From: Sulfuricellaceae bacterium
GTDB lineage: Bacteria; Pseudomonadota; Gammaproteobacteria; Burkholderiales; Sulfuricellaceae
Length of the DNA stretch: 64,000 nucleotides
Assembly (NCBI GenBank): GCA_031426915.1
Contig: JASJPB010000007.1
Location: forward strand, 2,996 to 66,995
Direction of reading: 5' to 3'
The notes under the pieces are model-generated. The model saw only the letters and a list, made by a program, of their open reading frames with translations. It was not told where the DNA came from and ran no database searches. The translations under genes were made by a program, and so were the position numbers. Positions 9,298-28,959 of this stretch are shown here, one piece after another (the first letter of the stretch is position 1; each line of letters starts with the position of its first letter).

Positions 9298-9302
9298 GGT
9301 AC

Positions 9303-10861: not shown

Positions 10862-11482
10862 ATGAAATTGCCGGGCTATGTTCTTGCATCATTGTGTCTG
10901 CTTGGCTTCGGACTCTGTTCGGGCGCGCGGGCAAACATCTATGCCTATACTGCGGCTGACGGTAGTGTGAGCCTGAGTAACGTGCCGGCGGACAATCGCT
11001 ACAAAATACTGGTTCCCGATCACAAGGCAGCGGCTGTCGTCTTGCCGCTGCCCGAGACGGGCAGGCTGCCGCTTGCCCGCGCCGGCAAGTCCCGCTACGA
11101 CCAGATCGTCGAGGAAGTCGCGCGCGCCCATGGTCTCGATGGTGCGCTGCTGCATGCCGTCATCTCGGTGGAGTCGCACTACAACCCCAGGGCCGTTTCG
11201 AAGAAAGGCGCTGCCGGGCTGATGCAGCTCATGCCGGCGACCGCGAAGCGCTATGGTGTTTCGGACTCGTTCGACCCGGCTCAGAACCTGCATGGCGGCG
11301 CGCGATACCTGCGCGATCTGCTGACCCTGTTCAACAGCGACATGAGCCTGGCGCTGGCCGCTTACAACGCGGGGGAGAACGCGGTCATCAGGCACGGCAA
11401 CCGCATTCCACCCATCCGCGAAACCAGGGATTACGTGCCCAAAGTGCTCGGCTTTTACCGCAAATACCTGGCCAGTTCGTAA
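10862..11482 (+). CDS. Lytic transglycosylase (SLT family)
   Basis: AVISVES, GAAGLMQLMP, ALAAYNAG, ETRDYV; signal peptide. Confidence 0.95.
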   Translation: MKLPGYVLASLCLLGFGLCSGARANIYAYTAADGSVSLSNVPADNRYKILVPDHKAAAVVLPLPETGRLPLARAGKSRYDQIVEEVARAHGLDGALLHAVISVESHYNPRAVSKKGAAGLMQLMPATAKRYGVSDSFDPAQNLHGGARYLRDLLTLFNSDMSLALAAYNAGENAVIRHGNRIPPIRETRDYVPKVLGFYRKYLASS

Positions 11483-11513
11483 AATGGCGGCCACCCTGGA
11501 AAGGAGAGAGAAA

Positions 11514-11894
11514 ATGTTCAGCACGCTGATCGTCGACGATAACGACGCCTTCCGCCAGTCTCTGCACCAGGTCCTGTCGCGGCGTTTCCCATCCATGCGC
11601 ATCGTCGAGGCCGCGGATGGCGAGGGTGCCCTGTATCAGGCCGCATACCATCATCCCGATCTGATTTTCATGGACATCAGAATGCCGGGGAACAATGGTC
11701 TCGTCATCACCCAGGCCATCAAATCCTCGGATTTACACCCCATCATCTGCATCATCACCAGCCACGATTTGCCGGAATACCGCGATGCGGCATTACGTTG
11801 CGGCGCGGATCACTTCATGGTGAAAGGCGAGTCGAGCGAAGCGCAGATTGCCGCCCTCGTGGACGGCGTCCTGACCGTTAGGCGTCCGTCCTGA
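11514..11894 (+). CDS. Single-domain response regulator (NarL-like receiver)
   Basis: TLIVDD, DLIFMDIRMPG, IITSHD, FMVK; RBS AAGGAG. Confidence 0.9.
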   Translation: MFSTLIVDDNDAFRQSLHQVLSRRFPSMRIVEAADGEGALYQAAYHHPDLIFMDIRMPGNNGLVITQAIKSSDLHPIICIITSHDLPEYRDAALRCGADHFMVKGESSEAQIAALVDGVLTVRRPS

Positions 11895-12157
11895 ATCTCC
11901 TGCAAGCGACGTCACGCATTTCTCTCTGCCCTGGAACCGCCCTGTAGCTCCGTTTCGCACTTCTGCTTTTCCCTACAGTCAATCCCCCCCCCGCAAGTTA
12001 AGTCCGGCGCGTAGCGAAATGCGGGGTTCGCCTCGGTGTCAATTTGTCGCACTTCATTAACAATCTGTCACAAGGATTTCAGTGGCGTGGGTGTCATGTC
12101 CAGTCGGCAAATCCGGGTCTAGCAAGTTTTGGATTAATGCGAGTGAGGGAGGCAGTT

Positions 12158-15100
12158 ATGGAACCCGAAGCCATCAACAACTTTAGCGGGGTGCTACGAA
12201 AAGTATGGCGCCTGATTTTTCTGTCTATCCTGATAGGAGTGTTAAGTCCCCAGTATGCGGCGGCGCTGACCATCAACGTGGTCGACCAGAACGGTGCTGC
12301 GATAACCGGAGGTTTCCGCTGGCTGATTGAAGAGGATGCCACCAAGGCATCCGTTCCAGGCCAGCTTGCCGGCGGTACCAATCTGGCCCTCAGCTTCCAC
12401 ACCAGCTACATGCCGGTAGTGGATGCAGGCAGGACCGCGAGTTCCTCTGCTGCCGTCACGCTTCCTGTGCCGGCCCAGCCGAAGCGCTACTTTGTCTCGG
12501 TCCTGCCGGATGGCAGTTACCAGATGGGGGGCGCAGCCGTCGTCGAGGGTGGTGAGAACGGCACGGTGAAAATCGTGGTGAACAAGACCCCGATCCCCAC
12601 CGCGCAAATATCCCTGTTCGTGTTCGAGGACAACCAGCCCATCAATGGTGCTCCCGATCTGCCTCAGGAATTGGGCCTGGCGAATTTCTCGGTCACCCTG
12701 AAGGAAGCCGGTGGCACGTATGGCGCCTCTGGTGGCCAGGTCATCCAGGATGCCTTCGGCAACCCGATCGGAACCAGCTACCAGCAATTGCCCAACGGTG
12801 ATTTCGTCTACAACACGCCGGGCGATCCGACGAGTGGTCCGGTGGTGCAAGCCCTGGGCAACGGATTCATCAAGACCGGGGCCGACGGCACGGTATTGAT
12901 CAAGTACCTGGCTCCTGCCAAGTACACCCTGGAGGTGATTCCTCCGGCGGGTTCCGGATTCATCCAGACCTCCACCATCGAGGGCACCAAGGGTATCGAC
13001 GCCTGGGTGAAGGCCAACGAGCCGAGCTTCTTCCAGGAATTCGGGCCGCCCGGACATCACGTGTTCGTCGGCTTCGTCAAGACCAACTTCAAGGATGCAT
13101 CCGTGCTTAACGGATCCACCACCATCAGCGGCAAGGTGGTGAACATGCATAGCAGCCGGCCGCCGAATTTCTCGTTTTTTAACGGCGACCCCTTTCCGCA
13201 GTGCTGGATCGGCCTGAACGAACTTGCCGTGACGACCGGGCGGGCGGTTTATACCACCCCCTGCAAGCCGGACAGCAGCTTCACGATTCCCAGCGTACCG
13301 CCCGGTTCCTACCAACTGGTGATCTGGGATGAAAACCTGGATGTCGTGATTGCCTCCAACAACGTCACGGTGAACCCGGATGGCTCGTGCCGAACAGCGA
13401 ATGGCAGCTGTGACCTGGCGGAAGTGCCGGTCTTCAACTGGTTCGGCAAACTGGAAAGCCGGGTGTTTTTCGATGGCAACGAAAACGGCTTCAGGGATGA
13501 CGGTGAAGTCGGCATTCCGGGCCAGGCGGTGAACATCCGCTTCCGCGACGGCAGCATTTACCAGTCGCAGGTCACCGATGCGAACGGTGAAGTCAAATTC
13601 AACGAAGTGTTCCCCTTCTTCAACTGGCTCATCGCCGAAGTGGATTTCGCGCGCTTCAAAGCCACGGGCGCCACCGTCGTGGTGGACGCAGGTGGTCCGG
13701 TTCCGCCCCACAACGGCTGGGCCGTGCCCTCCTGGAACAAGCTCAACCCGCAACCTCAGTCCGAGAACGCCGGCCTGCCTTACCGCACTGAAACCGGCCC
13801 GGTCCTGCTGGAAGGCATCCAGACTTTCCTCGGCCAGACCAACGTGATCGAGTGGGGCAAGAACAACTATGGCCCCGGCGACAACGGCGGGATTGCGGGC
13901 ATTGTCCATTACGGCATTACCCGTGCCGAGGCGGACCCACGCTACGCTGCGGCGGAAAACTGGGAGCCGGGCATTCCCCGCGTTCAGGTGAACCTGTACC
14001 GGGATTGCAACGGCGACGGCATCATCGACAAGCCCGACTGCACCCTGACCACCGGTCTCAACAGTGTAACCAGCTTCATTCTGGCCGATGTGGACAACTG
14101 GCCTTTCGGCAACTTCCCGGGCGCCGAGGATGTCGATCGTGATGGCAACAATCTATTCGACCAGGGCGATGCCTACAAGATCGGCACCACCGACAGCTGG
14201 GACGACAAGCTTCCCACCGGCTGCCAACTGGATGCAAGCGGCGTGCCTTTCACTTCCAACGGCTTTACCACCGACTGCTATGACGGCCTGCGCAACTTCA
14301 ACCAGGTGCGCCCGGCAGTGTTTGACGGCGGCTATGCCTTTGGTCCGCCAGCCGGGGACGTGGCTCTGCCACCCGGCAAGTACGTTGTCGAGGCAGTTGC
14401 TCCGCGCGGCTATGTGACACTCAAGGAAGAAGACAAGAACGTGGATTACGGCGACGCCTACAAGCCGAGCCCCCTGTTCCTGCCGCCGGTTTGCGTGGGC
14501 GATCCCCATCTTGTGCCCGCCGAGCTCTCCCTGTTCCCCGGTGTTCCCGTGGATCCGTCCATGGCTGGACAGACCCGGCCCCTGTGTGATCGCAAGAGTG
14601 TCGAAGTTGTCCAGGGCAAGAACGCGGCCGCTGACTTCTTCATGTTCACCGAAGTGCCGGTTGCCAGCCACATTGTCGGCATGATCCTCAACGACCTGGC
14701 CAATGAGTTCGACCCCAACGCGCCTACATTCGGCGAGAAACTGGCGCCATCCTGGGTGCCGGTGTCGATCCGTGACTGGACCGGCAAGGAAATCTCCCGC
14801 GTGTACTCTGACCAGTGGGGCACCTTCAATGCACTGGTGCCGTCCAGCTACTCGGTGAACATCCCCATGCCCTCCGGCGTGGCTCCCAACATGCTCACTA
14901 CCTGCATGAACGACCCCGGCCCGATCCCGGACGCGGGCGGCAATCTGGTCATCGACCCCTACTTCGACCGCCAGTACAGCCAGTTCTGCTACACCTTCCA
15001 GTACCTGCCGGGCAAGACCACCTACCTCGACACCCCGGTGCTGCCGGTGGCTGCTTTCGCCGGTCCAGGGCAATTCCCGGTGGACTGCGAATTCACCGAC

Positions 15101-17275
15101 GGTACGCCGGTTGTCTACACGGTGGAAGGAACGACCTCGGGTGGTGCCAGCCATCACGGCCCGTATGTGCCGACGCCGAGTCTCAATATCGCCACCCAGC
15201 CCAGGCTGCGCATCGTTTCGGCTGGCAGCGTGCAGGTGGCCAATCCCGCCTATGACGGTACCGCCGCAACGCCCAGGTTCATTGCTCGCGACTTCGGCTT
15301 CGGCGCACAGGGAGCCAACAGCAAGGTGACAATCAACAACGTCAGCCTGCCGATCATCTCCTGGGATAACGGCGTCATCGTGGCGCGCGTTCCGAGCGGG
15401 GTGGCCACCGGCCAGCTGGTCGTGACACGCGACAACACCACCAGCACCAGGACTTCCCTGCTGGGTGCCACGGTTACGGTAGGCGGTGCATTGCCGACCG
15501 TCGTTGCTCCTGGCGGCAGCATCCAGACCGCCATCGACGGCACTTTGCAGGGCCGCCTGATCCTGGTTCCGCCCGGTCGCTATGACGAGTTGGTGATCAT
15601 GGACAAGAAGGTGAAACTCCAGGGTTGGGGCGCGCTTGCGACCAACATCAACGCCGCCAAGGTGCCTGCTGAAAAGCTCGCGAAATGGCGTGCAGATGTG
15701 ACCCGGAAGTACGCCAACGGAGGCGCTGCACGCACCTTCGACCTGGTGCCTGGCCAGACGGTTGGCTTCAACGCTCCCAACAACGAACCCAACCTGTTCA
15801 ATACCGAAGAAGGTCCCGGCATCCTGGTGGTGTCCCGCTCCAGCGGCGGCCAGGCGTTCAACAATACCAACCCGGCCCGCATCGACGGCTTCAGCATCTC
15901 AGGCGGTGACTCCGGCGGCGGTATCTTCGTCAACGGCTTCGCCAAATACCTGGAGATCAGCAACAACAAGATCTTCAGCAATGCGGGCACCTACGGTGGC
16001 GGCATCCGTATCGGCCACTTCAATGTGGAAACCAACGATGCCGACAACGACTTCATCAATATCCACAACAACCATATCGCGCAAAATGGCGGTCAGGGCG
16101 GTGCGGGTGGCGGTGTGTCGATCTACGCCGGCACGCAGGTGTACAACCTTGCCAACAACTATATCTGCGGCAACTTCACTGCCGGCCACGGCGGCGGCAT
16201 CGGCCACCTGGGCAGCAGCAACCGCGGTGTGATCGCCAACAACACGGTGATCTTCAACCAGTCCTTCGACCAGGGGACCAACGTCTCCGGCGGCGGTATC
16301 TACATCGGCGGACAAGCACCGCTGGTGGCCGGTACCCTCTCCCCCGGCACTGGCAACGTGACCGTGAGCGGCAACCTGATCCAGGGCAACCTGGCCGGGG
16401 CCGGCGACGGTGGCGGCATCGCGGCACAGTTCGTCAACGGGGCAGACATCGTCCCGGCGCCCAACAACGTGACCAACTGGAACCGCCTGACCCTGGTGAA
16501 CAACATGGTGGTGGACAACATCGCCGGCATGGCGGGTGGCGGTATCTCCCTCCAGGACGTGGCCTTGTCGACGGTCGCCAACAACACGGTTGCCGACAAC
16601 CACAGTACGGCCACTGCGGGCGCCGCCTTTGCGCCTAACAGCCCGAACCAGTCCACGGCCCAGCCGGCGGGGATCGTTTCCCGTGCCCACAGCACACTCC
16701 TCGCCAATACCATCGGTAACGGTCCAGCGGTAAGCACCTACAAACGCTATGCCAACCCGACGCTGGTGAACAACATCGTGTGGCACAACCGCTCGTTCTT
16801 CTGGACCATCGACAACACCACTGCGCCGCCCACCTTCGGGTTGCAGCCTTATGCCGCGAACCCGTACTGGGATCTGGCGGTAGTGGGCACCGCGTTGCCG
16901 ACCCTGTTGAACCCCAGGTTCAGCGACCTGACCGATGCCACGGGCTATCACGTGAGCAACATCGCGGTTAACCCGATGTTCATGGGCGAGGCGATGATCG
17001 GACCGCGCGGGGAGATTATCCAGCAACCGGAGTTCACCACCGGTATCGATACTGCTCCGGCTTTCGACGAGGGCGGCAACTGGATCGACGTGCGTTTCGG
17101 CATCGGCGTTCTGGCTGCACCCAGCCTGCTCAGCCCGGCTGGCGATTTCCACCTGCAACCTGGCTCCCCGGTCATCAATCTGGGAACCCAGAGCGCTGGC
17201 GTGACGCCGACCACCGACATCGATGGACAAGCCCGCTCCAACCCGCCCGACATTGGTGCGGACGAGCAGCAGTAG
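12158..17275 (+). CDS. Giant secreted protein (~1705 aa): SdrD-B-like, IPT/TIG, right-handed beta-helix, choice-of-anchor-Q-like C-terminus
   Basis: Signal peptide ending PQYAAA; RVFFDGNENGFRDDGEVGIPG; FGAQGANSKVTINN...SWDNGVIVARVP; SIQTAID plus NNxIxGN/GGGI repeats; FHLQPGSPVINLG...DIDGQARSNPPDIGADE. Confidence 0.85.
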   Translation: MEPEAINNFSGVLRKVWRLIFLSILIGVLSPQYAAALTINVVDQNGAAITGGFRWLIEEDATKASVPGQLAGGTNLALSFHTSYMPVVDAGRTASSSAAVTLPVPAQPKRYFVSVLPDGSYQMGGAAVVEGGENGTVKIVVNKTPIPTAQISLFVFEDNQPINGAPDLPQELGLANFSVTLKEAGGTYGASGGQVIQDAFGNPIGTSYQQLPNGDFVYNTPGDPTSGPVVQALGNGFIKTGADGTVLIKYLAPAKYTLEVIPPAGSGFIQTSTIEGTKGIDAWVKANEPSFFQEFGPPGHHVFVGFVKTNFKDASVLNGSTTISGKVVNMHSSRPPNFSFFNGDPFPQCWIGLNELAVTTGRAVYTTPCKPDSSFTIPSVPPGSYQLVIWDENLDVVIASNNVTVNPDGSCRTANGSCDLAEVPVFNWFGKLESRVFFDGNENGFRDDGEVGIPGQAVNIRFRDGSIYQSQVTDANGEVKFNEVFPFFNWLIAEVDFARFKATGATVVVDAGGPVPPHNGWAVPSWNKLNPQPQSENAGLPYRTETGPVLLEGIQTFLGQTNVIEWGKNNYGPGDNGGIAGIVHYGITRAEADPRYAAAENWEPGIPRVQVNLYRDCNGDGIIDKPDCTLTTGLNSVTSFILADVDNWPFGNFPGAEDVDRDGNNLFDQGDAYKIGTTDSWDDKLPTGCQLDASGVPFTSNGFTTDCYDGLRNFNQVRPAVFDGGYAFGPPAGDVALPPGKYVVEAVAPRGYVTLKEEDKNVDYGDAYKPSPLFLPPVCVGDPHLVPAELSLFPGVPVDPSMAGQTRPLCDRKSVEVVQGKNAAADFFMFTEVPVASHIVGMILNDLANEFDPNAPTFGEKLAPSWVPVSIRDWTGKEISRVYSDQWGTFNALVPSSYSVNIPMPSGVAPNMLTTCMNDPGPIPDAGGNLVIDPYFDRQYSQFCYTFQYLPGKTTYLDTPVLPVAAFAGPGQFPVDCEFTDGTPVVYTVEGTTSGGASHHGPYVPTPSLNIATQPRLRIVSAGSVQVANPAYDGTAATPRFIARDFGFGAQGANSKVTINNVSLPIISWDNGVIVARVPSGVATGQLVVTRDNTTSTRTSLLGATVTVGGALPTVVAPGGSIQTAIDGTLQGRLILVPPGRYDELVIMDKKVKLQGWGALATNINAAKVPAEKLAKWRADVTRKYANGGAARTFDLVPGQTVGFNAPNNEPNLFNTEEGPGILVVSRSSGGQAFNNTNPARIDGFSISGGDSGGGIFVNGFAKYLEISNNKIFSNAGTYGGGIRIGHFNVETNDADNDFINIHNNHIAQNGGQGGAGGGVSIYAGTQVYNLANNYICGNFTAGHGGGIGHLGSSNRGVIANNTVIFNQSFDQGTNVSGGGIYIGGQAPLVAGTLSPGTGNVTVSGNLIQGNLAGAGDGGGIAAQFVNGADIVPAPNNVTNWNRLTLVNNMVVDNIAGMAGGGISLQDVALSTVANNTVADNHSTATAGAAFAPNSPNQSTAQPAGIVSRAHSTLLANTIGNGPAVSTYKRYANPTLVNNIVWHNRSFFWTIDNTTAPPTFGLQPYAANPYWDLAVVGTALPTLLNPRFSDLTDATGYHVSNIAVNPMFMGEAMIGPRGEIIQQPEFTTGIDTAPAFDEGGNWIDVRFGIGVLAAPSLLSPAGDFHLQPGSPVINLGTQSAGVTPTTDIDGQARSNPPDIGADEQQ

Positions 17276-17329: not shown

Positions 17330-18532
17330 ATGCGTATCCCAAATTTTCGTAAAATGCTGATTCCCCTGGCGATCGCCGCCCTGGGCGCGGCATCCCTTCC
17401 TGCCGGCGCCGCGGCGTTCGTGCAGTGCCCCAGCGACAGCAACGGGGACGCCATCCCCGACCTGGCGGGAGCCGACCCGAGCGTGGTCTGCAAATCCCTG
17501 ACCGCCAGCGACGGGTTTGCCACCATGGCCGATGGCACGGTGCTTTACACCTTCGGCTTCCACGATGCGACCGGCGTGCCGCAGGACCAGGTGATCGCGC
17601 AGACAATGATGGCCGCCGAGATTTCCGCGCCGACCATCGAACTTCAGGAAGGCAACAAGTTCTACCTGTCCCTGACCAACGTCGGCATGAGCATGCGGCC
17701 CGACCTGTTCGACCCCCACACCGTGCACTTCCACGGCTTTCCCCAGGCCGCGCCCGTGTTCGACGGCATGCCGGAGGGGTCGTTCGGCGTGAACATGGGG
17801 TCGAGCATCACTTACTTCTACAACATCGTCGAACCCGGTACTTTCCTCTATCACTGCCACATGGAAGCCACCGAGCACATGCAGATGGGCATGCTGGGGA
17901 ACCTTTATGTGCGCCCCCTCCAGGACGGAACGCCCAAGGTGTACAACAGCAAGACCTACACCAAATTCGCCTACAACGACGGTGATGGCTCGACCGGCTA
18001 CAACAAGAGCTATCCGCTCCAGTTGAGCGGGTTCGACCGCACCTTCCACGAGGACCACCTCGCAATTCAGCCTTTGCCCTTCTCGTTCATGCGCGACACC
18101 TACACCATGATCAACGGACGCGGCTATCCCGATACGATCGACCCGAACCCGTTGCCGGCCCCGGCTGAAAACGGCGGGCTGGTGTCGCAGAAAGTCAGTT
18201 CCCTGGTGACGCTCAACCGGGCGAGCGAAGGGGAGAAACTGCTGCTGCGCTTTTCCAACCTGAGCGTAACCAGTTACTACACCGTCACCATTCTCGGCTT
18301 GCCGATGCGGGTGGTCGGCAGCGGCGCCCATATCGCACGCGGACCGGGCGGACAGAACCTCGCCTACGACACCAGTTCCATCACCATCGGTGGCGGCGAA
18401 GCGGCGGACGTACTGGTCGATACCTCGGGTGTCCCGGCAGGAACCTACTTCCTTTACACCACCAATCTCAATTACCTGAGCAACGACGCGCAGGATTTCG
18501 GCGGAATCATGACCGAAATCCGCGTCAACTGA
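17330..18532 (+). CDS. Two-domain multicopper-oxidase-family subunit A (type 1 site in domain 1)
   Basis: Signal peptide; PHTVHFHG and YHCHMEATEHMQMGM in domain 1; no His motifs in domain 2. Confidence 0.88.
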   Translation: MRIPNFRKMLIPLAIAALGAASLPAGAAAFVQCPSDSNGDAIPDLAGADPSVVCKSLTASDGFATMADGTVLYTFGFHDATGVPQDQVIAQTMMAAEISAPTIELQEGNKFYLSLTNVGMSMRPDLFDPHTVHFHGFPQAAPVFDGMPEGSFGVNMGSSITYFYNIVEPGTFLYHCHMEATEHMQMGMLGNLYVRPLQDGTPKVYNSKTYTKFAYNDGDGSTGYNKSYPLQLSGFDRTFHEDHLAIQPLPFSFMRDTYTMINGRGYPDTIDPNPLPAPAENGGLVSQKVSSLVTLNRASEGEKLLLRFSNLSVTSYYTVTILGLPMRVVGSGAHIARGPGGQNLAYDTSSITIGGGEAADVLVDTSGVPAGTYFLYTTNLNYLSNDAQDFGGIMTEIRVN

Positions 18533-18554
18533 TCCGCGAAACGAGGAGGACGAC

Positions 18555-19850
18555 ATGAACCAGCTGACCTGCAAATACCCGCGATTGCTCAACGTCGCCA
18601 TGACGCTGCTGCTGTTTGCGGCCACCAACATGGCATGGGCCGTCGTTGACGGCGTCACCGCCACCACCTTCAACCTGACGGCCAGGGCGGACTACATCTC
18701 CAGCGCGGACGGCAACGTCCACTATGCCTGGGGTTACGCCAACGGTGCCGGCCGGATGCAGTATCCGGGCGTCACCATGATCGTCAACCAGGGCGACACG
18801 GTCACCGTCAACCTGAGCAACGCGTTGCCGGTACCCGTTCCGGTGTCTGCCGTTTTCCCCGGTCAGGCCAATGTCGTCGCCAGCGGCGGGTCGTCCGGCC
18901 TCATGACCAACGAGGTATTGCCCGGTGGCACGGTGACCTACACCTTTACCGCCACCAACCCCGGAACCTATCAATACCACAGCGGAACCAACCCGGCGCT
19001 ACAGGTGGAAATGGGACTGGTGGGCGCACTGATCGTGCGGCCAAACACCGCCGATCCGTTGCACCAGGCCTATGCCCACCTCAATACCGGCTTCGACCAC
19101 GAATACCTGTTCCTGATCACCGAGATGGACCCGCTGATCCACGCCCAGGTGGATGCGCAGGTCGCAGCCAATCCGGCTGCCGCCCCCATCGTGGACACCT
19201 CGGGCTTCAGCCCGACGCTGTGGTTCATCAACGGACGCAATGCACCGGATACCCTGCTTCCCGCGGGCGCCGGGGCGCCATTGCTGCCGACGCAGCCGTA
19301 CAACATCGTGCCGCGCATGCATGCCGGAGAAAAAATCCTGCTGCGCGTGGTCAATGCCGGGCGCGACCTGCATCCCTTCCATACTCACGGCAACAATTTC
19401 TGGGTCATGGCCAGGAACGGGCGGCTACTGGAAAGCGCACCGGGAGTCGGTCCGGATCTGGCCTACTCGGATTTCACCATGCGTATCGTCCCGGGCGAGA
19501 CCTACGATGCGACCTTCGAATGGACTGGCAAGAACCTGGGCTGGGACGTCTATGGCCATGCACCGGGCGACGCCCTGGCGCCGAACGAATATGCGCCTGA
19601 CCATGGCAAGCCGATCCCGGTGATCCTGCCCAGCGTCCAGGATCTGTCCTATGGTCCGCATTACAGCGGCAGCCCCTACCTGGGACAGTTCGGCGCGCTG
19701 CCACCGGGGCAGACCCCGCAAGGCGAGAACGGCGGTTACTTCCACATGTGGCATTCCCACAATGAGAAGGAAATCACCAACGACGACATATTCCCCGGCG
19801 GAATGATGACCATGCTGATCATCGAACCTGCTGGCGTGACCATACCGTAA
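18555..19850 (+). CDS. Two-domain multicopper-oxidase-family subunit B (T2/T3 His in domain 2, no type 1 Cys)
   Basis: Signal peptide; domain 1 has AVFPGQ and YHSG only; domain 2 has HPFHTHG and WHSHNEKE. Confidence 0.88.
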   Translation: MNQLTCKYPRLLNVAMTLLLFAATNMAWAVVDGVTATTFNLTARADYISSADGNVHYAWGYANGAGRMQYPGVTMIVNQGDTVTVNLSNALPVPVPVSAVFPGQANVVASGGSSGLMTNEVLPGGTVTYTFTATNPGTYQYHSGTNPALQVEMGLVGALIVRPNTADPLHQAYAHLNTGFDHEYLFLITEMDPLIHAQVDAQVAANPAAAPIVDTSGFSPTLWFINGRNAPDTLLPAGAGAPLLPTQPYNIVPRMHAGEKILLRVVNAGRDLHPFHTHGNNFWVMARNGRLLESAPGVGPDLAYSDFTMRIVPGETYDATFEWTGKNLGWDVYGHAPGDALAPNEYAPDHGKPIPVILPSVQDLSYGPHYSGSPYLGQFGALPPGQTPQGENGGYFHMWHSHNEKEITNDDIFPGGMMTMLIIEPAGVTIP

Positions 19851-19867
19851 ACCAGGGAGCAGCAATC

Positions 19868-21817
19868 ATGAAAACGACCATGCCACATACCAAGAGACTC
19901 GTCCAGGCGCTAGCGCTGGCGGGGCTGGTTACGCTTGCCGCACCCGCCTTCTCCGCCACTTACAACCTGCGTGCCGAGGCCTTTCCATTGACCATGCCGG
20001 ACGGAGCCATCATCCAGATGTGGGGCTATGCGCTCGACGGCGCGTCCTGCGCGGCACCGCCCTGCGCGGCGACAGTTCCGGGTCCGGCCCTGACCGTGCC
20101 GCCGGGGGATACATCGCTGACCATCAACCTCAAGAACAATCTGACCGAAGCGACCTCGATCGTCATTCCCGGCCAGATGGCCACCATGACGCCGGTGTAC
20201 ACCACCAACTCCGGCGGCAAACAGGTGGTGCAGTCCTTTACCCACGAAACGACGGCTAACGGCGGCACCAATATCTATACCTGGAACAACCTGAAAACGG
20301 GCACCTACCTGTATCAGAGCGGCACCCATCCCCAGGTGCAGGTGCAGATGGGCCTCTACGGCGGCATGATGCATGACGCAGCGGCTGGCCAGGCCTATGC
20401 CGGCCTCAGCTATGACAACCAGCACCTGCTGGTGTTCAGCGAGATCGACCCGGCGCAGCACGCCGCCATCGCGGCCGGCACCTTCGGCACCCCGGGCGCT
20501 CCGCTCACCTCGTGCATGGGCACCGGTCATGCGCCCATGCCCATGACCAGCGCCCTGTGCTACCAGCCCAAGTACTTCCTCATCAACGGCAAGCCTTTTG
20601 TCGCCTCGGATTCGCCCCTGCCGCTTCCGGCCGGGCAGCGCACCCTGTTGCGCTTCGTCAACGCCGGATTGCAGACCCACGTCCCGCTCATCAACGGCAT
20701 GGACATGCAACTGGTGGCGGAGGACGGCAACCCCTATACCTGGCCGAAGCAGCAGTACTCGGCCCTGCTGCCGGCGGCAAAAACCGTGGATGCGGTGGTG
20801 GTCCCGCAGTTGGCGGTCGGCGCGACAACCGCCACCTACCCGCTCTATGACCGCCGCCTGAAACTGACTACTGGCGCGGCCACCGATGGCGGCATGTTTG
20901 CCCGGTTGCTGGTGGGCAATGATCTCCATGCGCCCACCATGACTTCCACCCCGGTCACGACCGCCACCACCAACAGCCTTTATAACTACCAGCTGACGGC
21001 GAGCGACCCGGATGCCGGTCAGTTGCTGACTTTTTCGCTGGTCAATCCACCGGCAGGCATGACGCTTAACGCCACCGGGCTGATCGCCTGGACGCCGACC
21101 GGCGTTGGCAACGTGTCGGTGACGGCGCGGGTGACCGATCCCACCAGCCTGCATTACGACCAGGTCTTCAATATCACCGTGAGCTCGGCCAACCGTCCTC
21201 CGGCCACCCTGGATGACACGGCGGCCGCACCGGTCAGAACGGCCGCTCCCTACCCGGCAGTGGTCATCAACGTGCTGGCCAACGACACGGATCCGGATGC
21301 TCCCACCAATACCATCGATCCGACGACGGTATTCCTGAGCACCACTCCCGACAAGGGTGGAACGGCCACCCCCAACCCGGACGGCACCATTTCCTACCGT
21401 CCGGCGGTGGGCTACACCGGCATCGAGACCTTCCGCTACAAGGTGAAAGACACCCTGGGTCTGGCCTCGAACCCCGGTGCCTACGTGCGGGTCAGCGTCA
21501 ACCCCGCCAACCAGCCTCCGGTCGTGGTGGACGATACCGCAACGGCGCCGTTGCGGACCGCCGCTCCTTACCCCGCGGTGATCATCAACGTGCTGGCCAA
21601 TGATTCAGACCCTGACGGTACGCTCAACGCCGGGTCGGTCTGGATTACGGTCACGCCCAACAAGGGCGGAACGGCCACCGTCAATGCCAACGGTACCATT
21701 TCCTACCGGCCCAAGGCCGGGTTCACGGGAACCGAGACCTTGCGCTACAAGGTCCTGGACAACCTGGGATTGGCGGCAACCACCGCAGCCTACGTGCGGG
21801 TGAACGTCGGGCCATGA
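19868..21817 (+). CDS. Cupredoxin-fold subunit C lacking Cu motifs, plus Ig-like domains
   Basis: Same fold motifs (SIVIPGQ, GTYLYQSGTHPQVQVQMGLYG, LINGK, LLRFVNAG) without HxH/HCH; one putative-Ig domain and two cadherin-like repeats. Confidence 0.8.
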   Translation: MKTTMPHTKRLVQALALAGLVTLAAPAFSATYNLRAEAFPLTMPDGAIIQMWGYALDGASCAAPPCAATVPGPALTVPPGDTSLTINLKNNLTEATSIVIPGQMATMTPVYTTNSGGKQVVQSFTHETTANGGTNIYTWNNLKTGTYLYQSGTHPQVQVQMGLYGGMMHDAAAGQAYAGLSYDNQHLLVFSEIDPAQHAAIAAGTFGTPGAPLTSCMGTGHAPMPMTSALCYQPKYFLINGKPFVASDSPLPLPAGQRTLLRFVNAGLQTHVPLINGMDMQLVAEDGNPYTWPKQQYSALLPAAKTVDAVVVPQLAVGATTATYPLYDRRLKLTTGAATDGGMFARLLVGNDLHAPTMTSTPVTTATTNSLYNYQLTASDPDAGQLLTFSLVNPPAGMTLNATGLIAWTPTGVGNVSVTARVTDPTSLHYDQVFNITVSSANRPPATLDDTAAAPVRTAAPYPAVVINVLANDTDPDAPTNTIDPTTVFLSTTPDKGGTATPNPDGTISYRPAVGYTGIETFRYKVKDTLGLASNPGAYVRVSVNPANQPPVVVDDTATAPLRTAAPYPAVIINVLANDSDPDGTLNAGSVWITVTPNKGGTATVNANGTISYRPKAGFTGTETLRYKVLDNLGLAATTAAYVRVNVGP

Positions 21818-21860: not shown

Positions 21861-22415
21861 ATGATCCAGTCGGGATGCAAGGGAGAAAACATCATGGACA
21901 ATTTTCATGTTTCAAGCACTTGCAGTTGCAGGCAGGCGGAGCCGGCATTCGGGATGCTGGCGCTGATGCTTTACCTGTTCATGGTGGTGCTGCTGATGTC
22001 CGGTTGTGCGGCCACCAAGGGTCCGGTGTCCGGGAAGGACGGCCCGGATGCCATCACCCGCCCCACCAATTGCAAGTCGGAAGAACGGCTGGGTATCCGC
22101 ATCGAGGGGCTGCGTCTCTCGGCGGCCGGCAACATGCTCGATCTGCGCTATCGCGTGAATGACTCCGAAAAGGCCGCTCCCTTGTTCGAGCGCAAGACCC
22201 GGCCCTACCTGCTCGACGAGGCAAGCGGGGCGGCCTTTGGCGTGCCGGACTCGCCCAAGGTCGGACAACTGCGGACCACCCGGCGCAACAGCGACCCCCT
22301 GTCCGAGCGCGACTACCACATCCTGTTCGCCAATCCAGGGCACCTGTTGCAGGCCGGACAGAAGGTTTCGCTGGTGATCGGCGAGGTGAAGTTGGAGAAC
22401 ATCGTTGTCCAGTAG
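21861..22415 (+). CDS. Conserved hypothetical lipoprotein
   Basis: Hydrophobic stretch ending LMSGC; RBS GGAG; co-oriented in the operon. True start may be downstream. Confidence 0.7.
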   Translation: MIQSGCKGENIMDNFHVSSTCSCRQAEPAFGMLALMLYLFMVVLLMSGCAATKGPVSGKDGPDAITRPTNCKSEERLGIRIEGLRLSAAGNMLDLRYRVNDSEKAAPLFERKTRPYLLDEASGAAFGVPDSPKVGQLRTTRRNSDPLSERDYHILFANPGHLLQAGQKVSLVIGEVKLENIVVQ

Positions 22416-24791: not shown

Positions 24792-25469
24792 ATGAATACG
24801 GAAAAAACCATGCAGATTCGTGCCCTGGATGCGGGATTGCCGCTGCGCCGGCTATCCGGGGTGATAGCCGTCACCGCGCTGTTTTTGGGCCTGGCGCTGG
24901 TTGCCGGCGTGGCCACCTCCGGCGAGCACGATCACCATGCCCACCATGGACAGGGAATGGATGCCCTGCGCGGCGTTTACACGCGCTCGGTCAGCTCTTA
25001 CAAGATCCCCGACCTCAAGCTGGTGGACATGAACGGCGCGGCGGTTTCCCTGCGCGAGGGGCTGGGCGGTAACGACCCCGTGATGCTGAATTTCATCTTC
25101 ACCACCTGTACCGCGGTCTGCCCGGTGATGAGCGCCACCTTTCACCATGTGCAGGATCAGCTCGGCACCGACAGCAGCAAGGTGCGCATGATCTCGATTT
25201 CCATCGATCCGGAAAACGATACCCCGGCAAAACTCAGGGAATATGCCGGCAAATATCACGCCGGGCCGCAATGGAAAATGCTCACCGGCAGCGCGGAAAA
25301 CAGCATCGCCGTGCAGCGGGCTTTCGACACCTTCCGCGGCGACAAGATGAATCACGCGCCGGCCACCTTCATCCGGGCGGGCGGCGCAGACAAGCCCTGG
25401 GTAAGGCTGGACGGGTTCGCCAGCGCGCCGGATATCGTCAAGGAATACCGTCAGCTTGCGTCCAGGTGA
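24792..25469 (+). CDS. SCO1/SenC family protein
   Basis: NFIFTTCTAVCP (CxxxC), conserved His (MNHAP), His-rich linker EHDHHAHHG. Confidence 0.92.
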   Translation: MNTEKTMQIRALDAGLPLRRLSGVIAVTALFLGLALVAGVATSGEHDHHAHHGQGMDALRGVYTRSVSSYKIPDLKLVDMNGAAVSLREGLGGNDPVMLNFIFTTCTAVCPVMSATFHHVQDQLGTDSSKVRMISISIDPENDTPAKLREYAGKYHAGPQWKMLTGSAENSIAVQRAFDTFRGDKMNHAPATFIRAGGADKPWVRLDGFASAPDIVKEYRQLASR

Positions 25470-25479
25470 GACGCGCGCC

Positions 25480-27126
25480 ATGGCCCATGCGAGCAAGATA
25501 ATCGCGCTGCTGCTGGCACTGGCGGCAAGCGCTGCTTGCGCTTCCGAAGCGCCGTCCGGGCAAGACCCAGGCATGCGCATTTACCGCTCGGGTCTGCTCC
25601 CATCAGGCGCGGTCTTGCGTGGCGTGCTGCGCAACGGGACCGAGTTGAGCGGCGCCGATGCGGCTTGCGCCAAGTGCCATCGGCGCAGCGGCCTGGGCGG
25701 CGGGGAAGGGCAGAAAGCCATTCGTCCCATCGCCGGCAGGCTGCTCTTCGCCCGGGCAGAGGCGCCCGCCGCGGAACGTGCCCGAGGTTTGCCGGAGGGC
25801 GCGCAATCACTGCGTCCTCCCTATACCGTGGAGACGCTCGCCCGGGCGTTGCGCGAGGGCGTCGATCCCTCCGGGCGCTCCCTGGATGCGTTGATGCCGC
25901 GCTTCGACATGAAGGATGAAGACGTGGCGCAGCTCGCGGCATACTTGCAACGCTTGTCGCAAACCTGGGCGCCGGGCGTGAGCGAGAGCGAAATTCATTT
26001 CGCCACCATCGTCACGCCAGGGGTCGATCCGGTCCGGAGCAAAGCCATGCTGGATGTGCTGGAGACCTTCTTCGCCGACAAGAACGCCGGCACGCGCAAG
26101 GAAGGCAGGCGCAAGGCCATCGGCCGCGAACAGATGTACCGTTCCTACCGGACCTGGGTGCTGCACGTGTGGAAACTGGAAGGCCTGCCCGAAACCTGGT
26201 CCGCCCAGCTTGAGGCTTATTACCGCAAGCAACCGGTGTTCGCGGCCTTGAGCGGAATGGGCGCGGGCGACTGGCGTCCGGTACATGAATTCTGCGAGCA
26301 GACAGGGCTTCCCTGCCTGTTCCCCAACGTCGATTACCCGGTGATTTCGGAAACGGATTACGCCTCGATTTACTTTTCGCGCGGGATCGTACTCGAAGCC
26401 GAAGTGCTGGCCAGGCACCTGGCCGATGCCGGCCGGGACGGGCAGGGCGGTCCGGTGGTGCAGGTGTTCCATGACGATGCCGTCGGCCGGGTGCCGGCTC
26501 AGGCCTTGCGCACAGCGCTGCGGAGTCATGGCATCAGCAATCTCGTCGATCGGCCGGTGAGCGGGAAAGAACCGGTCTCGGCGGGGTTCTGGCGCGGCCT
26601 GCTTGAAGCCGAGCGGCCGGGAATACTGGTCCTGTGGTTGAACGATGGCGATTTCGTCAACCTGCATGCCCTGGGAAATCCTCCGCCTGGCCTGGAAAGT
26701 TTCTTTCTTTCGGCCAGCCTGGTCACCTCGCCCTGCCGGGTACTGCTGTTCGACACCTGGCTGGACAAGGTTCGTCTCACCTATCCTTTCGAACTGGCCT
26801 CGCGGCGCACGCAACGCGCGTCGCGCATGGAACTCTGGCTCCGCTCCAGGAATATCCCGCTGACGGACGAACGCATCCAGGCCAATACCTATTTTGCCGT
26901 CACCGTTGCCGGCGATGCGCTGGCGCACATGAACGAAAACTTTTCCCGCGACTATTTCATCGAGCGGGTGGAACAGATGACCGAACAATCCCTGTCCTCG
27001 GAACTTTATCCCCGCCTCAGCCTCGGCCCGGGCCAGCGTTATGCCTCCAGGGGCAGCTACGTGGTCAGGTTCTCGGGCAGCGGCGAAAACACGCTGGTCC
27101 CGGTGAGCGACTGGATTGTTCCATAA
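25480..27126 (+). CDS. Cytochrome c domain fused to a type I periplasmic-binding-protein-like domain
   Basis: Signal/lipobox-like N-terminus, single CAKCH, LMPRF axial-Met-like motif; C-terminal PBP-like alpha/beta domain. Confidence 0.75.
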   Translation: MAHASKIIALLLALAASAACASEAPSGQDPGMRIYRSGLLPSGAVLRGVLRNGTELSGADAACAKCHRRSGLGGGEGQKAIRPIAGRLLFARAEAPAAERARGLPEGAQSLRPPYTVETLARALREGVDPSGRSLDALMPRFDMKDEDVAQLAAYLQRLSQTWAPGVSESEIHFATIVTPGVDPVRSKAMLDVLETFFADKNAGTRKEGRRKAIGREQMYRSYRTWVLHVWKLEGLPETWSAQLEAYYRKQPVFAALSGMGAGDWRPVHEFCEQTGLPCLFPNVDYPVISETDYASIYFSRGIVLEAEVLARHLADAGRDGQGGPVVQVFHDDAVGRVPAQALRTALRSHGISNLVDRPVSGKEPVSAGFWRGLLEAERPGILVLWLNDGDFVNLHALGNPPPGLESFFLSASLVTSPCRVLLFDTWLDKVRLTYPFELASRRTQRASRMELWLRSRNIPLTDERIQANTYFAVTVAGDALAHMNENFSRDYFIERVEQMTEQSLSSELYPRLSLGPGQRYASRGSYVVRFSGSGENTLVPVSDWIVP

Positions 27127-27702: not shown

Positions 27703-28959
27703 TCAACGTCCGTACCGCCGACGCCCCGCCCGAGGGCCGCTAGCATCCTTGAATTCATGGGAAAGTGCTGCGGCAGAAACCTGGAACGCAGTTCGTAGCC
27801 GATCAATCTCAGCGCTATCCACGCCGACCGCGCCCAGCCTTCGTTCCCATTCGTCCTGGACGATAGCGGCAATTGCCTGAAGCTGGGTTACCGCATCTGT
27901 ATGGCTTACGCCGAAGTTGGCAGCAGTGGCTGCCAGCCTATCCAGGTCAACCACGGCGCCTTGTTGATGGTACGCCATGGCCAGGGCGAATACGGTGGGC
28001 TTGGGTGCGGCAACAACGTCGAACATGCTGGATAAACGCCACGCTCCATATTCCGCCGAGTACACGAGACCATGATTCCTGGTGTGATCGTCGGCGTTGC
28101 CCACCAACGTGTTATATACAATACGGCGCCATAGTTCCTGGGCGTTGATCTCCGCCGCGTCCTTGCACCATCGGCGAAACTCATCCGCGAACCTGACATA
28201 GCTTTTCCGGGCTAAAGTGTCTTGCCGTGGGTCTCCAAGGCCCAGCACAGTGTGCGCGCTCGCGTAGTGGATACGACTGTGGTTCTGGCGATCGAATCTT
28301 TTGACAAGGAATGCCGTTCTGCCATCCGGAAGCTGATGTATGCGAGACTCGCATGCATCCATGCCACACTTGATGGCCATCTCCAGCATCACATGTTCGT
28401 TGTGCGCAATAAAAGCAGAGTCACCCTTTTCGGGGAGCTTTAGAATCCATTGCGCGCCATCCAGCATCACCGTGAACTTCGGTTTGGCGCCGCCGAGACT
28501 GGTGGTCGGCATGATCGCTTCCGCGTAGTCGCGGCGTACCCTGCCGAGATCCTGAGCCGAGATGGCGGCGTCAATCTCAGCTAATTCCGGGATCGGTTCC
28601 GCAAGTTTGCGTTCCGCATCTCCGAACAGGATTGCGCCACAACTGTCTTGAGGCGCCAACCCCAGCACCTCGATGTCATCTATCTCGCCATGCTCGTGAA
28701 ACAGCACGTCGCGACCCCAGGCATCCGGGCCAGCGTCCTTCATGACGCCGAAGATACCGCCTTGCAGCAAGGTTTTCATCACGGAACGACGAAGCGGCAG
28801 ATTGATTGGGTCCAGCGCGACCTTGCCTTCAGAACCCAGATATGCGGTCTCATACCGAAACGCGCCGACACGGTTCACCGTATCAAGCGTAAAGTCTCCG
28901 CACAGAGTTGGCTCCTTGGCTCCCGGGATCCACGTCCAAACTGCAATTGATTTTTTCAC
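27703..28959 (-). CDS. hipA: HipA-family kinase toxin
   Basis: DAGPDAWGR, SLGGAKPK, WILK, RFDR, GNADDHTRNHG. Confidence 0.9.
   Translation of the reverse strand: MKKSIAVWTWIPGAKEPTLCGDFTLDTVNRVGAFRYETAYLGSEGKVALDPINLPLRRSVMKTLLQGGIFGVMKDAGPDAWGRDVLFHEHGEIDDIEVLGLAPQDSCGAILFGDAERKLAEPIPELAEIDAAISAQDLGRVRRDYAEAIMPTTSLGGAKPKFTVMLDGAQWILKLPEKGDSAFIAHNEHVMLEMAIKCGMDACESRIHQLPDGRTAFLVKRFDRQNHSRIHYASAHTVLGLGDPRQDTLARKSYVRFADEFRRWCKDAAEINAQELWRRIVYNTLVGNADDHTRNHGLVYSAEYGAWRLSSMFDVVAAPKPTVFALAMAYHQQGAVVDLDRLAATAANFGVSHTDAVTQLQAIAAIVQDEWERRLGAVGVDSAEIDRLRTAFQVSAAALSHEFKDASGPRAGRRRYGR

Follow-up and report, generated by a model that had tools for sequence, protein, structure and literature searches.

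Two-domain multicopper oxidases (2dMCOs) build their trinuclear copper site from residues of two protomers, and those of type C carry the type 1 copper site in the N-terminal domain (PMC13151041, PMC11761707). The type C enzymes include the blue copper oxidase of Nitrosomonas europaea (3G5W), the metagenomic mgLAC (2ZWN) and an Arthrobacter enzyme (3GDC); each chain has two cupredoxin domains, with the type 1 site and the HxxHxH/HCH motifs in domain 1 and the HxxHxH/HxH motifs in domain 2. One polypeptide holds both half-sites, so that three identical chains yield three type 1 sites and three clusters. Three tandem multicopper oxidase (MCO) genes, Slit_1816-1818, have been described in Sideroxydans lithotrophicus ES-1 in a cluster with the mofC-like Slit_1812, the SCO1 gene Slit_1813, small hypothetical proteins and a cytochrome, with relatives in Ralstonia and Paraburkholderia (PMC5566968, PMC12016527). 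The tandem genes were noted in 2017 (PMC5566968), and in 2025 the three proteins were reported to rise together on magnetite (PMC12016527). Two of the proteins carry MCO motifs; the third is much larger, has no such motifs and contains adhesin and polysaccharide-lyase-like domains. The trio was treated as separate cupredoxin proteins of unknown role, without the idea of a split site (PMC5566968, PMC12016527).

The window, which is the whole stretch of 64,000 nucleotides analysed here, contains three consecutive genes whose products (A, B and C) have the two-domain layout of the type C enzymes; the motifs kept in domain 1 of A and domain 2 of B stand in the same places as theirs.

17330-18532, forward strand: subunit A gene, 400 aa, two cupredoxin domains (from ORFs, Pfam and PDB relatives)
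17717-17734, forward strand: A motif HTVHFH, residues 130-135, 99-100% conserved in 80 loci, aligned to HTIHFH of 3gdc
17852-17893, forward strand: A motif HCHMEATEHMQMGM, residues 175-188, HCH-x5-H-x4-M
18555-19850, forward strand: subunit B gene, 431 aa, two cupredoxin domains
19371-19388, forward strand: B motif HPFHTH, residues 273-278, 100% conserved, aligned to HAIHTH of 3g5w and HAMHSH of 2zwn
19752-19760, forward strand: B motif HSH, residues 400-402, 100% conserved, aligned to HDH of 3g5w and 2zwn
19868-21817, forward strand: subunit C gene, 649 aa
19868-20917, forward strand: C core, two cupredoxin domains without copper ligands (Pfam Cu-oxidase_3 and Cu-oxidase)
20930-21817, forward strand: C tail, Ig-like, Big_9/cadherin-like (tandem-95) repeats, from about residue 355

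By sequence comparison, A, B and C have all diverged from a type C two-domain multicopper oxidase. BLASTP aligns A with B at 27% identity (E 1e-12), B with C at 32% (E 2e-23) and A with C at 23% (E 3e-5). Shine-Dalgarno sequences stand upstream of all three ORFs, the spacers are 17-22 nt, and Sec-type signal peptides are predicted for all three proteins. The best PDB relatives of A are the type C enzymes 3gdc, 7rab, 3g5w and 2zwn, and its domain 1 aligns with domain 1 of type C 2dMCOs (E 1e-13 to 5e-10); domain 2 of B aligns with domain 2 of the solved type C enzymes with the His motifs in register.

The copper ligands are unevenly distributed over the three proteins. Assigned by motif, H130, C176, H183 and M188 in domain 1 of A make up a type 1 site, and H133, H135, H175 and H177 are trinuclear-cluster ligands; the spacer from HCH to the next His is x5, two residues above the usual x3. 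All eight residues are at least 99% conserved among orthologs from the 80 loci. Exactly one HxxHxH and one HCH occur in 78 of the 80 A orthologs, the motifs are absent from one of them, and a Met-rich HMQMGM is invariant. Domain 2 of A has no His motif, with SYYTVT and YTT at the equivalent places. In B it is domain 1 that is without ligands (VSAVFPG and YHSG at the motif places), and domain 2 that provides the trinuclear His, assigned by motif as H276, H278, H400 and H402; H273 is a vestigial type 1 position and S401 stands where the type 1 Cys would be. These five His are 100% conserved over the 80 loci. The window's C protein has no HxH-type motif, no ligand is conserved across C orthologs from the 80 loci, and neither HxxHxH nor HCH is found in 71 of 73 of them. 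The initial annotation had placed these ORFs and motifs where they are found here, and had described three paralogous subunits with a full type 1 site and four type 2/type 3 His confined to domain 1 of A, ligand loss in domain 1 of B, a Cys-to-Ser replacement within the His motifs of B domain 2, and Ig repeats in a motif-free C. ORF and motif inspection, BLASTP, conservation across the 80 loci and the Pfam Big_9/cadherin-like matches bear out this description.

The division of ligands among A, B and C is essentially invariant in the 80 loci, which come from at least seven phyla and span Beta-, Gamma- and Deltaproteobacteria, Myxococcota, Nitrospirota, Acidobacteriota, Planctomycetota and Hydrogenedentes. 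The same ligand table is found in two distant sister lineages, that of Cupriavidus metallidurans CH34 (A' 36% identical to A) and that of a contig with 70% GC, L082 (A'' 35% identical). That orthologs would retain the complementary pattern had been anticipated, and the 80 loci and both sister lineages strongly agree; judged from these alignments, the pattern is not due to chance. A neighbour-joining tree groups the A proteins of all three lineages in one clade and their B proteins in another, which makes the division of labour older than the lineage split.

It is scarcely credible that B and C are decaying duplicates without a joint role and A alone a blue-copper electron carrier, even though B and C have no type 1 site and C lacks every ligand. 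Orthologs across phyla share 50-86% (B) and 34-74% (C) identity with the window proteins, the four trinuclear His of B are invariant, the pattern recurs in three lineages, fusions exist, and the four trinuclear His of A would be useless to a protein that only carries electrons. Another reading likens the interface site to that of copper nitrite reductase, a mononuclear type 2 copper, with nitrite or another small oxidant being reduced instead of O2. NirK chains are among the PDB sequence matches of A and B, there are weak NCBIfam Cu_nitrite_red matches, and the cluster is found in MAGs assigned to strict anaerobes (Desulfobulbaceae, Desulfatibacillum, Syntrophobacterales) and in Dissulfuribacter thermophilus, occurrences that are odd for an O2-reducing enzyme. 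NirK has HxxDxH and HC, with just three type 2 His, whereas all eight trinuclear His are kept here, as HxxHxH and HCH in A and as HxxHxH and HSH in B. With type C MCOs as the best PDB matches of A and of B domain 2, and NCBIfam scores of 25-44 bits, far under the cut-off of 296, a nitrite-reductase-like site is very improbable.

The genes are always adjacent in the order A-B-C, with median spacers of about 20-30 nt (80 loci), and belong to a conserved cluster of UP, A, B, C, a small lipoprotein and a subtilase, often with SCO1 and a MofC-like cytochrome c. Their neighbours in the window are:

12044-17275, forward strand: UP, 1743 aa, secreted (Pfam SdrD_B, CarboxypepD_reg, fn3_3, Beta_helix)
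21861-22415, forward strand: S184, small lipoprotein, lipobox LMSGC, conserved domain of about 110 aa
22433-24760, forward strand: subtilisin-like serine protease (S8), motifs DTG179, HGT216 and GTS392
24792-25469, forward strand: SCO1/SenC-type copper chaperone, CxxxC at C106/C110, H188, His-rich N-terminus
25456-27126, forward strand: MofC-like protein, c-type cytochrome domain (CAKCH) and periplasmic-binding-protein-like domain

UP, for which the ATG near 12155 is probably the real start codon, sits upstream of A in 72 of the 80 loci. Its N-terminal 1050 aa or so are a string of beta-sandwich domains (SdrD-B/CnaB/prealbumin-like), after which come an IPT-like domain and, at the C-terminus, a right-handed beta-helix of about 600 aa. 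The AF2 model of the C-terminal part (pLDDT 79.8, pTM 0.85) matches AlgE4/AlgE6 epimerases and PL6 lyases in Foldseek at TM 0.5-0.6; the N-terminal model is weak (pLDDT 60.7) and matches SdrD and pilins. Among representatives of 50%-identity clusters, at least 13 have UP and A as one fused protein, and so do loci L018, L066 and L069, where the A signal peptide is missing. A single 2698-aa ORF of C. metallidurans joins C, Big_9 and UP, and B is fused to C in P0448 and P0449. Two proteins that are naturally fused must be present in a 1:1 ratio, and the occurrence of such fusions in different lineages argues that UP, A, B and C belong to a single physical complex. UP is thus very probably the fourth member of the oxidase complex, and probably its stalk or anchor. 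The distance matrices of UP and the three subunits are correlated (r 0.64-0.82), as is expected of any co-inherited operon.

The best explanation of the whole, to which we assign a probability of about 0.72, is that A, B and C form a heteromeric split MCO attached to UP. Since the eight trinuclear His are split between A and B, the oxidase is probably active only as a mixed complex, and it is a well supported prediction that the three form an obligate heteromer. A homotrimer-type enzyme would have turned into an obligate heteromer with one copy each of A, C and B, whose six cupredoxin domains complete a pseudo-threefold ring, A1-A2-C1-C2-B1-B2; stoichiometry and order are taken from homotrimer geometry, in which A domain 1 must contact B domain 2, giving A-C-B and not A-B-C. 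With the half-sites on separate gene products and a third paralog without any, such a ring can hold no more than a single type 1 site and a single cluster. Substrate electrons would come in at the type 1 copper of A, wired through a Cys176-His dyad to the single trinuclear cluster at the A1/B2 interface, and there O2 would be reduced to water. The C core appears to be the third, ring-closing subunit, and C would be structural, bearing the anchoring modules. Through attachment to UP, a beta-sandwich rod ending in a polysaccharide-lyase-like beta-helix, the ring would sit at the cell surface, within the matrix or on a solid substrate.

A and B alone suffice for the eight His and the type 1 site, and C evolves faster (mean pairwise distance 0.52 vs 0.38 for A and 0.42 for B) and has variable anchoring tails, which in relatives are swapped for dockerin, TSP3, He_PIG or MopE-like modules. 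The enzyme might then consist of A and B only, as a heterodimer or a trimer such as A-B-B, with C a separate non-catalytic cupredoxin-fold adhesin in the same operon. This is quite unlikely: both cupredoxin domains of C are kept in all three lineages, C is found in 78 of the 80 loci, one lineage joins it to B and another to UP, which elsewhere is joined to A, and the ring of all solved 2dMCOs could not be closed by a pair of two-domain subunits (PMC13151041 and established knowledge). The obligate heteromer proposed in the initial annotation is supported by the ortholog pattern, synteny, the B domain 2 alignment and the fusions, but was incomplete, as it lacked the very probable fourth partner UP and the lipoprotein and subtilase that travel along. 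It had also been claimed that single-gene annotation would overlook the enzyme. The split-site arrangement, which is common to many bacterial phyla, was indeed missed by gene-by-gene annotation; the tandem genes themselves were known from earlier papers.

The split oxidase is, as a best guess, a secreted, surface-tethered metal oxidase. Its substrate may be Fe(II), Mn(II) or another extracellular metal ion or solid-phase reductant, an assignment we make tentatively. After Sec export, copper would be supplied by SCO1 (CopCD in one lineage), and the lipoprotein and subtilase may have a role in anchoring, processing or release. S184 is kept in all three lineages; it has no Pfam or PDB match and no conserved His, Cys or Met. 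The subtilase carries the same Big_9 repeats as C and has a homolog in L082. SCO1 occurs in the Beta/Gammaproteobacterial versions of the cluster, with CxxxC/H conserved, and its gene is overlapped by 14 nt by the MofC-like gene. The product of the latter has a conserved Met147, and its domains fit the description of the MofC homologs that stand beside SCO1 in OmpB/MofA clusters and in the three-MCO cluster of S. lithotrophicus (PMC5566968).

The same complex could instead serve copper homeostasis by oxidizing Cu(I), as CueO, CopA and PcoA do, rather than Fe/Mn or a mineral. NCBIfam copper_res_A is the top match for A and C and the second for B, all far under cut-off; SCO1 is linked, the L082 cluster holds a CopC/CopD fusion, HMQMGM is Met-rich, and C. 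metallidurans CH34, host of a sister cluster, is metal-resistant. Copper supply explains CopCD and SCO1 equally well, however, and UP, the anchoring tails, the subtilase and the CH34 secretin/pseudopilin system are alien to the periplasmic oxidases known from copper resistance. In S. lithotrophicus, moreover, the proteins respond to magnetite rather than copper (PMC12016527). We therefore regard a homeostatic role as unlikely.

Among known systems, the expected assembly resembles the six-domain MCOs ceruloplasmin, hephaestin and MnxG, whose six cupredoxin domains likewise form a ring and whose only trinuclear cluster lies where the last domain meets the first. This group includes ferroxidase or Mn oxidase roles; no close sequence relationship to these was detectable. 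They are single chains, whereas three chains are involved here, and ceruloplasmin has three type 1 sites in even-numbered domains, as against one in an odd-numbered (N-terminal) domain. MnxG has all four copper-binding regions in one chain, and its MnxE/F partners are not known to be cupredoxin paralogs. The S. lithotrophicus ES-1 cluster is taken to be the sister cluster, matched to that of C. metallidurans by its published description; in this lineage UP is fused to C, whereas UP is a separate gene in the window. OmpB of Geobacter sulfurreducens and MofA of Leptothrix are similar in being extracellular or surface MCOs with adhesion domains, SCO1 and a MofC-type cytochrome c with a periplasmic-binding domain. 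They are single large MCO polypeptides reported as non-homologous to the three tandem MCOs (PMC5566968), in contrast to the split of A, B and C over three genes. OmpB is secreted via an atypical type II system, going by the title of Mehta et al. 2006 as cited in PMC5566968, and the CH34 sister cluster adjoins its secretin/pseudopilin system. Mnx (MnxG with MnxE/F) and the iodide oxidase IoxA/IoxC are likewise multi-subunit oxidases from operons with SCO1-like genes, and the native enzymes need their partner subunits; IoxA has all four copper-binding regions in one chain, and the nature of IoxC was called unclear (PMC9415286). The copper regions of IoxA and MnxG thus lie within one chain, whereas the ligands described here are divided between A and B.

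The centre of the cluster consists of three adjacent, paralogous two-domain genes, A, B and C. They are tightly spaced, and each is a separate ORF with its own Shine-Dalgarno sequence and Sec-type signal peptide:

17330-18532, + strand: A, 400 aa
18555-19850, + strand: B, 431 aa
19868-21817, + strand: C, 649 aa

Each product matches Pfam multicopper-oxidase cupredoxin models at two places (above gathering scores: PF07732, PF07731 and PF00394 in A; PF07732 and PF07731 in B; PF07732 and PF00394 in C), which places all three in the multicopper oxidase (MCO) superfamily by fold. C additionally contains Big_9/cadherin-like repeats. Pairwise identities are 27% between A and B (E 1e-12), 32% between B and C (E 2e-23) and 23% between A and C (E 3e-5). 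Domain 1 of A carries HTVHFH at residues 130-135 and HCHMEATEHMQMGM at 175-188, and its domain 2 carries no motif. Domain 1 of B shows FPG and YHSG, and its domain 2 has HPFHTH (273-278) and HSH (400-402). No copper-ligand motif of the HxxHxH, HCH or HSH type is present in C. The initial annotation had described this layout, and all of it is found in the translated ORFs. An MCO binds four Cu and couples oxidation of its substrate to the reduction of O2 to water. None of the three polypeptides contains by itself the four copper-binding motifs of an MCO (two HxH-type, HxxHxH and HCHxxxHxxxxM). The full set is obtained only when A (HxxHxH and HCH...H...M) and B (HxxHxH and HSH) are combined.

By sequence, A is closest among solved structures to the type C two-domain MCOs (2dMCOs) 3gdc, 7rab, 3g5w and 2zwn (E 1.5e-13 to 5e-10), and its motifs are in register with HTIHFH and LYHCH of 3gdc. 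When domain 2 of B is searched by itself, it matches the second domain of 2zwn and of 3g5w, with HPFHTH aligned over HAMHSH/HAIHTH and WHSH over FHDH/IHDH. The 2dMCOs are trimers whose trinuclear site is built from residues of two protomers, and in type C enzymes the type 1 copper sits in the N-terminal domain (PMC13151041; PMC11761707); a 2026 paper is the latest to describe them as homotrimers (PMC13151041). Based on the alignment to these enzymes, domain 1 of A corresponds to the half-site with the type 1 copper and four His, and domain 2 of B to the complementary half-site with four His. Domain 2 of A, domain 1 of B and both domains of C have lost their half-sites. Two cupredoxin domains with an N-terminal type 1 site, as in type C 2dMCOs, are therefore found in A only; B and C have two domains and no type 1 site. 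Nor does each chain provide four trinuclear His from each of its domains: across 80 related loci and two sister lineages the domain 1 ligands are confined to A and the domain 2 ligands to B, a distribution that argues against a functional homotrimer. The ceruloplasmin-like arrangement of six cupredoxin domains in a single chain is likewise absent, as the domains are divided among three ORFs; no A::B::C fusion was seen among the 80 loci and the best 150 cluster representatives, only B::C. Judged from sequence, no subunit alone fits the definition of an MCO or a type C 2dMCO, and together they would act like one. From the geometry of the homotrimers, contact between domain 1 of A and domain 2 of B would require the order A1-A2-C1-C2-B1-B2 around the ring. 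We infer the stoichiometry, ring order, copper content and activity of this complex.

Each subunit has a His in its inter-domain linker (A H240, FHED; B H196, IHAQ; C H198, QHAA). These residues are kept at 97-100% across loci, are not known copper ligands, and could form three equivalent structural or metal sites round the ring. H273 of B (window 19371-19373), a vestigial type 1 His, is 100% kept, even though Ser stands in for the Cys and the remaining type 1 ligands have been lost. In C the equivalent position, H271, is His in 67% of orthologs, and 3g5w and 2zwn also have His there.

A copper nitrite reductase (NirK) type of site was considered and rejected on both motif and score. The motifs are the HxxHxH and HCH of MCOs. 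The type 2 copper of NirK is bound by three His, in the pattern HxxDxH and HC. The NirK model TIGR02376 scores 25.5 bits for A and 43.8 bits for B, against a cut-off of 296.3. IoxA/IoxC was also rejected as an identical system, since IoxA has all four copper regions (PMC9415286).

A scan of one genome per species returned 326 stretches encoding a relative of A, and the best 80 of the 326 were analysed. They come from Beta- and Gammaproteobacteria (Sulfuricella, Gallionella, Thiobacillus, Rhodoferax, Hydrogenophaga, Methylocaldum, Thioploca, Thiohalomonadaceae), from deltaproteobacterial groups (Desulfobulbus, Desulfobacteraceae, Desulfatibacillum, Syntrophobacterales, Geobacter) and from Polyangiaceae, Nitrospirota, Acidobacteriota, Phycisphaerae/Planctomycetaceae and Hydrogenedentes. 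Identity to A is 54-81% throughout these 80 loci. Conservation in them is at least 99% for the eight ligand residues of A and 100% for the five His in domain 2 of B, and no ligand is conserved in C. Among the 80 A orthologs, 78 have exactly one HxxHxH and a single HCH; among 73 C orthologs, 71 lack any such motif; and position 401 of B is Ser in all seven tabulated versions. The pattern extends to two sister lineages. On the chromid of Cupriavidus metallidurans CH34, A' (36% identical to A) has HTVHFH and HCH...EHLQMGM, B' (38% identical to B) has HPFHEH and HSH, and C' has no motif. On a contig of 70% GC (L082), A'' has HTVHWH and HCHFEDSEHVQLGM, and B'' has HPFHPH and HSH. The initial annotation, which proposed an obligate A/B/C heterotrimer with one trinuclear site between A and B, had named loss of the complementary pattern in orthologs as evidence against it; the pattern is kept in the 80 loci and in the sister lineages. 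In a neighbour-joining tree A forms one clade and B another, each including all three lineages, and the triplication and the complementary losses therefore predate the lineage split.

The order of genes is the same in almost every locus of sufficient length: UP, the large gene upstream of A, then A, B, C, a small lipoprotein gene (S184) and a subtilase gene (S8).

12044-17275: UP, 1743 aa, a secreted stalk/beta-helix protein

Relatives of UP share 42-77% identity, which is unusually high for a surface protein. Its C-terminal ~600 aa are confidently predicted to be a right-handed beta-helix (pLDDT 79.8, pTM 0.85), nearest in structure to alginate epimerase and PL6 lyase modules. The N-terminal ~1050 aa are modelled with low confidence (pLDDT 60.7) as tandem beta-sandwich modules of the SdrD-B/pilin kind, and the Foldseek matches are specific to the level of such modules. 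Profiles of UP and S184 had no match among PDB sequences. S184 has a conserved domain of ~110 aa in which no His, Cys or Met is conserved, and the protein has no known relatives. The subtilase retains the motifs DTG, HGT and GTS with an invariant H216.

When concatenated mature A, B and C were searched against 1.84 billion cluster representatives, many proteins of 1000-2800 aa with A at the C-terminus were found, and BLAST identified at least 13 near-complete UP::A fusions, often with Big_9 repeats as linkers. The A signal peptide is absent from the fusions in L018 (a Gallionella MAG), L066 (Hydrogenedentes) and L069 (Nitrospirales). In C. metallidurans UP is joined to the C-terminus of C in an ORF of 2698 aa, and in the high-GC lineage a single polypeptide comprises B and C (P0448, P0449). 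Which pair is fused differs between lineages, and each fusion fixes a 1:1 ratio. Such a pattern is classically seen for subunits of one complex, and it is the strongest support found here for a UP:A:B:C assembly. Co-variation among the distance matrices of the four proteins A, B, C and UP (r 0.64-0.82) is weak support, because any co-inherited operon would show the same. In loci of the Desulfatibacillum type (L050:7500-8300; P0366) no stop separates the UP ORF from the signal peptide of A: the frame continues through a poly-Gly, a hydrophobic and a basic stretch, which together resemble a GlyGly-CTERM sorting signal. Either a polyprotein that is processed or an artefact of assembly would account for this; as a fusion it is ambiguous because A retains its signal peptide.

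In Beta- and Gammaproteobacteria the cluster is followed, sometimes preceded, by genes for SCO1, which keeps CxxxC and His, and for a cytochrome c/PBP fusion that fits the published description of MofC homologs (PMC5566968). MofC homologs and SCO1 are also found with OmpB and MofA, which are extracellular MCOs, and with the three tandem MCO genes of Sideroxydans lithotrophicus (PMC5566968). In the window the N-terminal part of SCO1 (24792-25469) includes the His-rich stretch HDHHAHHGQGM, and the gene shares 14 nt with that of the MofC-like cytochrome (25456-27126), an overlap that suggests translational coupling. Genes for an SLT lytic transglycosylase and a stand-alone response-regulator receiver (10862-11894) precede UP; the former is again upstream in 8 loci, and the latter is found in 19, the listed matches being mostly Betaproteobacterial. 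Further upstream lies a divergent cluster for polysaccharide synthesis and export:

3313-10550, - strand: OEP outer-membrane factor; family 2 glycosyltransferase (chitin/cellulose-synthase-like); TackOD1/GGDEF protein; HlyD-type adaptor; 319-aa protein without assigned role; NAD epimerase

A tie between this cluster and the UP beta-helix is possible, though not a conserved one, the epimerase being common to L002 only. Directly downstream, the genes at 27703-31072 encode a HipA-like kinase and its HTH partner, an RHS-repeat fragment and a transposase of the IS200 type, and they indicate a variable or mobile boundary. The window also encodes a complete aa3-type cytochrome c oxidase operon (54661-62271) with COX2 bearing a c-type haem domain, COX1, CtaG, COX3 and a CtaA-like protein, so the organism also owns a conventional haem-copper oxidase.

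All parts of the cluster carry export signals, and the tails of C vary among relatives (cadherin-like, dockerin, TSP3, He_PIG or a MopE-like copper-binding module). In one relative of C (P0332) a PF11617 MopE-type copper-binding domain replaces the Ig tail, and other homologs have dockerin or thrombospondin type 3 repeats. We infer a secreted or surface-tethered enzyme that is loaded with copper in the periplasm. No secretion genes were found in the 64-kb window. In CH34 (L081; NC_007974.2, 1333097-1358485; locus 3616-11702) genes for a T2SS-type ATPase, an STN/TPR secretin and two pseudopilins lie directly upstream of A'-B'-C'::UP' and are candidates for a dedicated secretion system. The Iodidimonas iox cluster has gsp genes on its flanks (PMC9415286), and the title of Mehta et al. 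2006, as cited in PMC5566968, gives an atypical type II system for secretion of OmpB. In Geobacter sp. DSM 9736 (L083, LT896716.1; locus 1-1198, - strand) a 1364-aa protein with a faint Cu-oxidase_2 match, which resembles OmpB/MofA, and an FKBP-type isomerase, which resembles MofB, are encoded divergently to UP-A-B-C. In L082 (Logan SRR33876198 contig) A'' has a Tat-like signal (SRKDFL) in place of the Sec signal, and a CopC-CopD fusion gene lies between the S184-like gene and the subtilase gene (5113-6966), taking the place of SCO1. This fusion and a weak resemblance to CopA would fit a role in copper homeostasis, which we regard as improbable.

The only experimental data bearing on function come from strain ES-1 of S. 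lithotrophicus, in which the three tandem MCO proteins, SCO1 and the cytochrome reach higher levels on magnetite than they do with Fe(II)-citrate (PMC12016527). We take the ES-1 cluster, compared here through its published description, to be a sister of that in the window. An oxidase of metals or solid phases is a tentative reading, to which we give somewhat less than an even chance. It is consistent with the magnetite response, with the MofC/SCO1 module that this cluster has in common with OmpB/MofA systems, with the adhesin/beta-helix stalk, and with the habitat, since the DNA of the window is from a groundwater metagenome. The locus is found almost only in DNA metagenomes of groundwater and sediment; in a wetland metatranscriptome (n=1), 6% of the locus words are present.

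In the widest reading, to which we assign a probability of about one in four, the cluster encodes a four-part machine: an obligate A-C-B heterotrimeric MCO with a single catalytic centre, carried on the giant UP stalk and beta-helix and acting as an extracellular terminal module that reduces O2 (or oxidizes solid-phase Fe(II)/Mn(II)). The machine would occur in at least seven phyla and more than 300 species-level genomes and would serve bacteria at redox interfaces, among them lineages regarded as anaerobes, in which an O2-reducing enzyme is unexpected. If true, bacteria would have in it a copper-based means of oxidizing minerals or scavenging oxygen, parallel to multihaem cytochrome systems. 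The split-site family by itself, with a catalytic centre divided over two gene products and a ligand-free third paralog closing the ring, would stand as a living intermediate between two-domain enzymes that form homotrimers and the six-domain oxidases of a single chain, such as ceruloplasmin, and would be a clean natural case of a homomer becoming an obligate heteromer by complementary loss. Expression of A, B or C singly would then be unlikely to give activity, and the genes are at present annotated singly, as 'multicopper oxidase domain protein', 'manganese oxidase' or 'hypothetical protein'. A split site would also provide a testable entry point to the three cupredoxin proteins induced in Sideroxydans on magnetite, and to a conserved cluster of iron-, sulfur- and methane-cycling bacteria in groundwater and sediments.

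No proposal of a heterotrimeric or split MCO was found in the literature searched, most subscription journals lying outside it. He et al. (2017) noted 'three tandem MCO-coding genes' in S. lithotrophicus with mofC-like and copper-chaperone genes and 'fewer clues' to their function (PMC5566968), and a 2025 AEM proteomics paper found MCO motifs in two of the proteins, the third being larger and without them (PMC12016527). The split of the catalytic site, the fusions and the breadth of the family are in neither ES-1 paper nor elsewhere in the literature searched, and it is these three points that are newly brought here. The window has the S. lithotrophicus-type arrangement of three tandem cupredoxin/MCO genes, two of them with motifs, together with mofC-like and SCO1 genes. 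Its gene content (A, B, C, SCO1 and the cytochrome c/PBP fusion) agrees with the published account of ES-1, description being the basis of the comparison, and the C. metallidurans cluster, 36-38% identical to A and B, fits that description as well.
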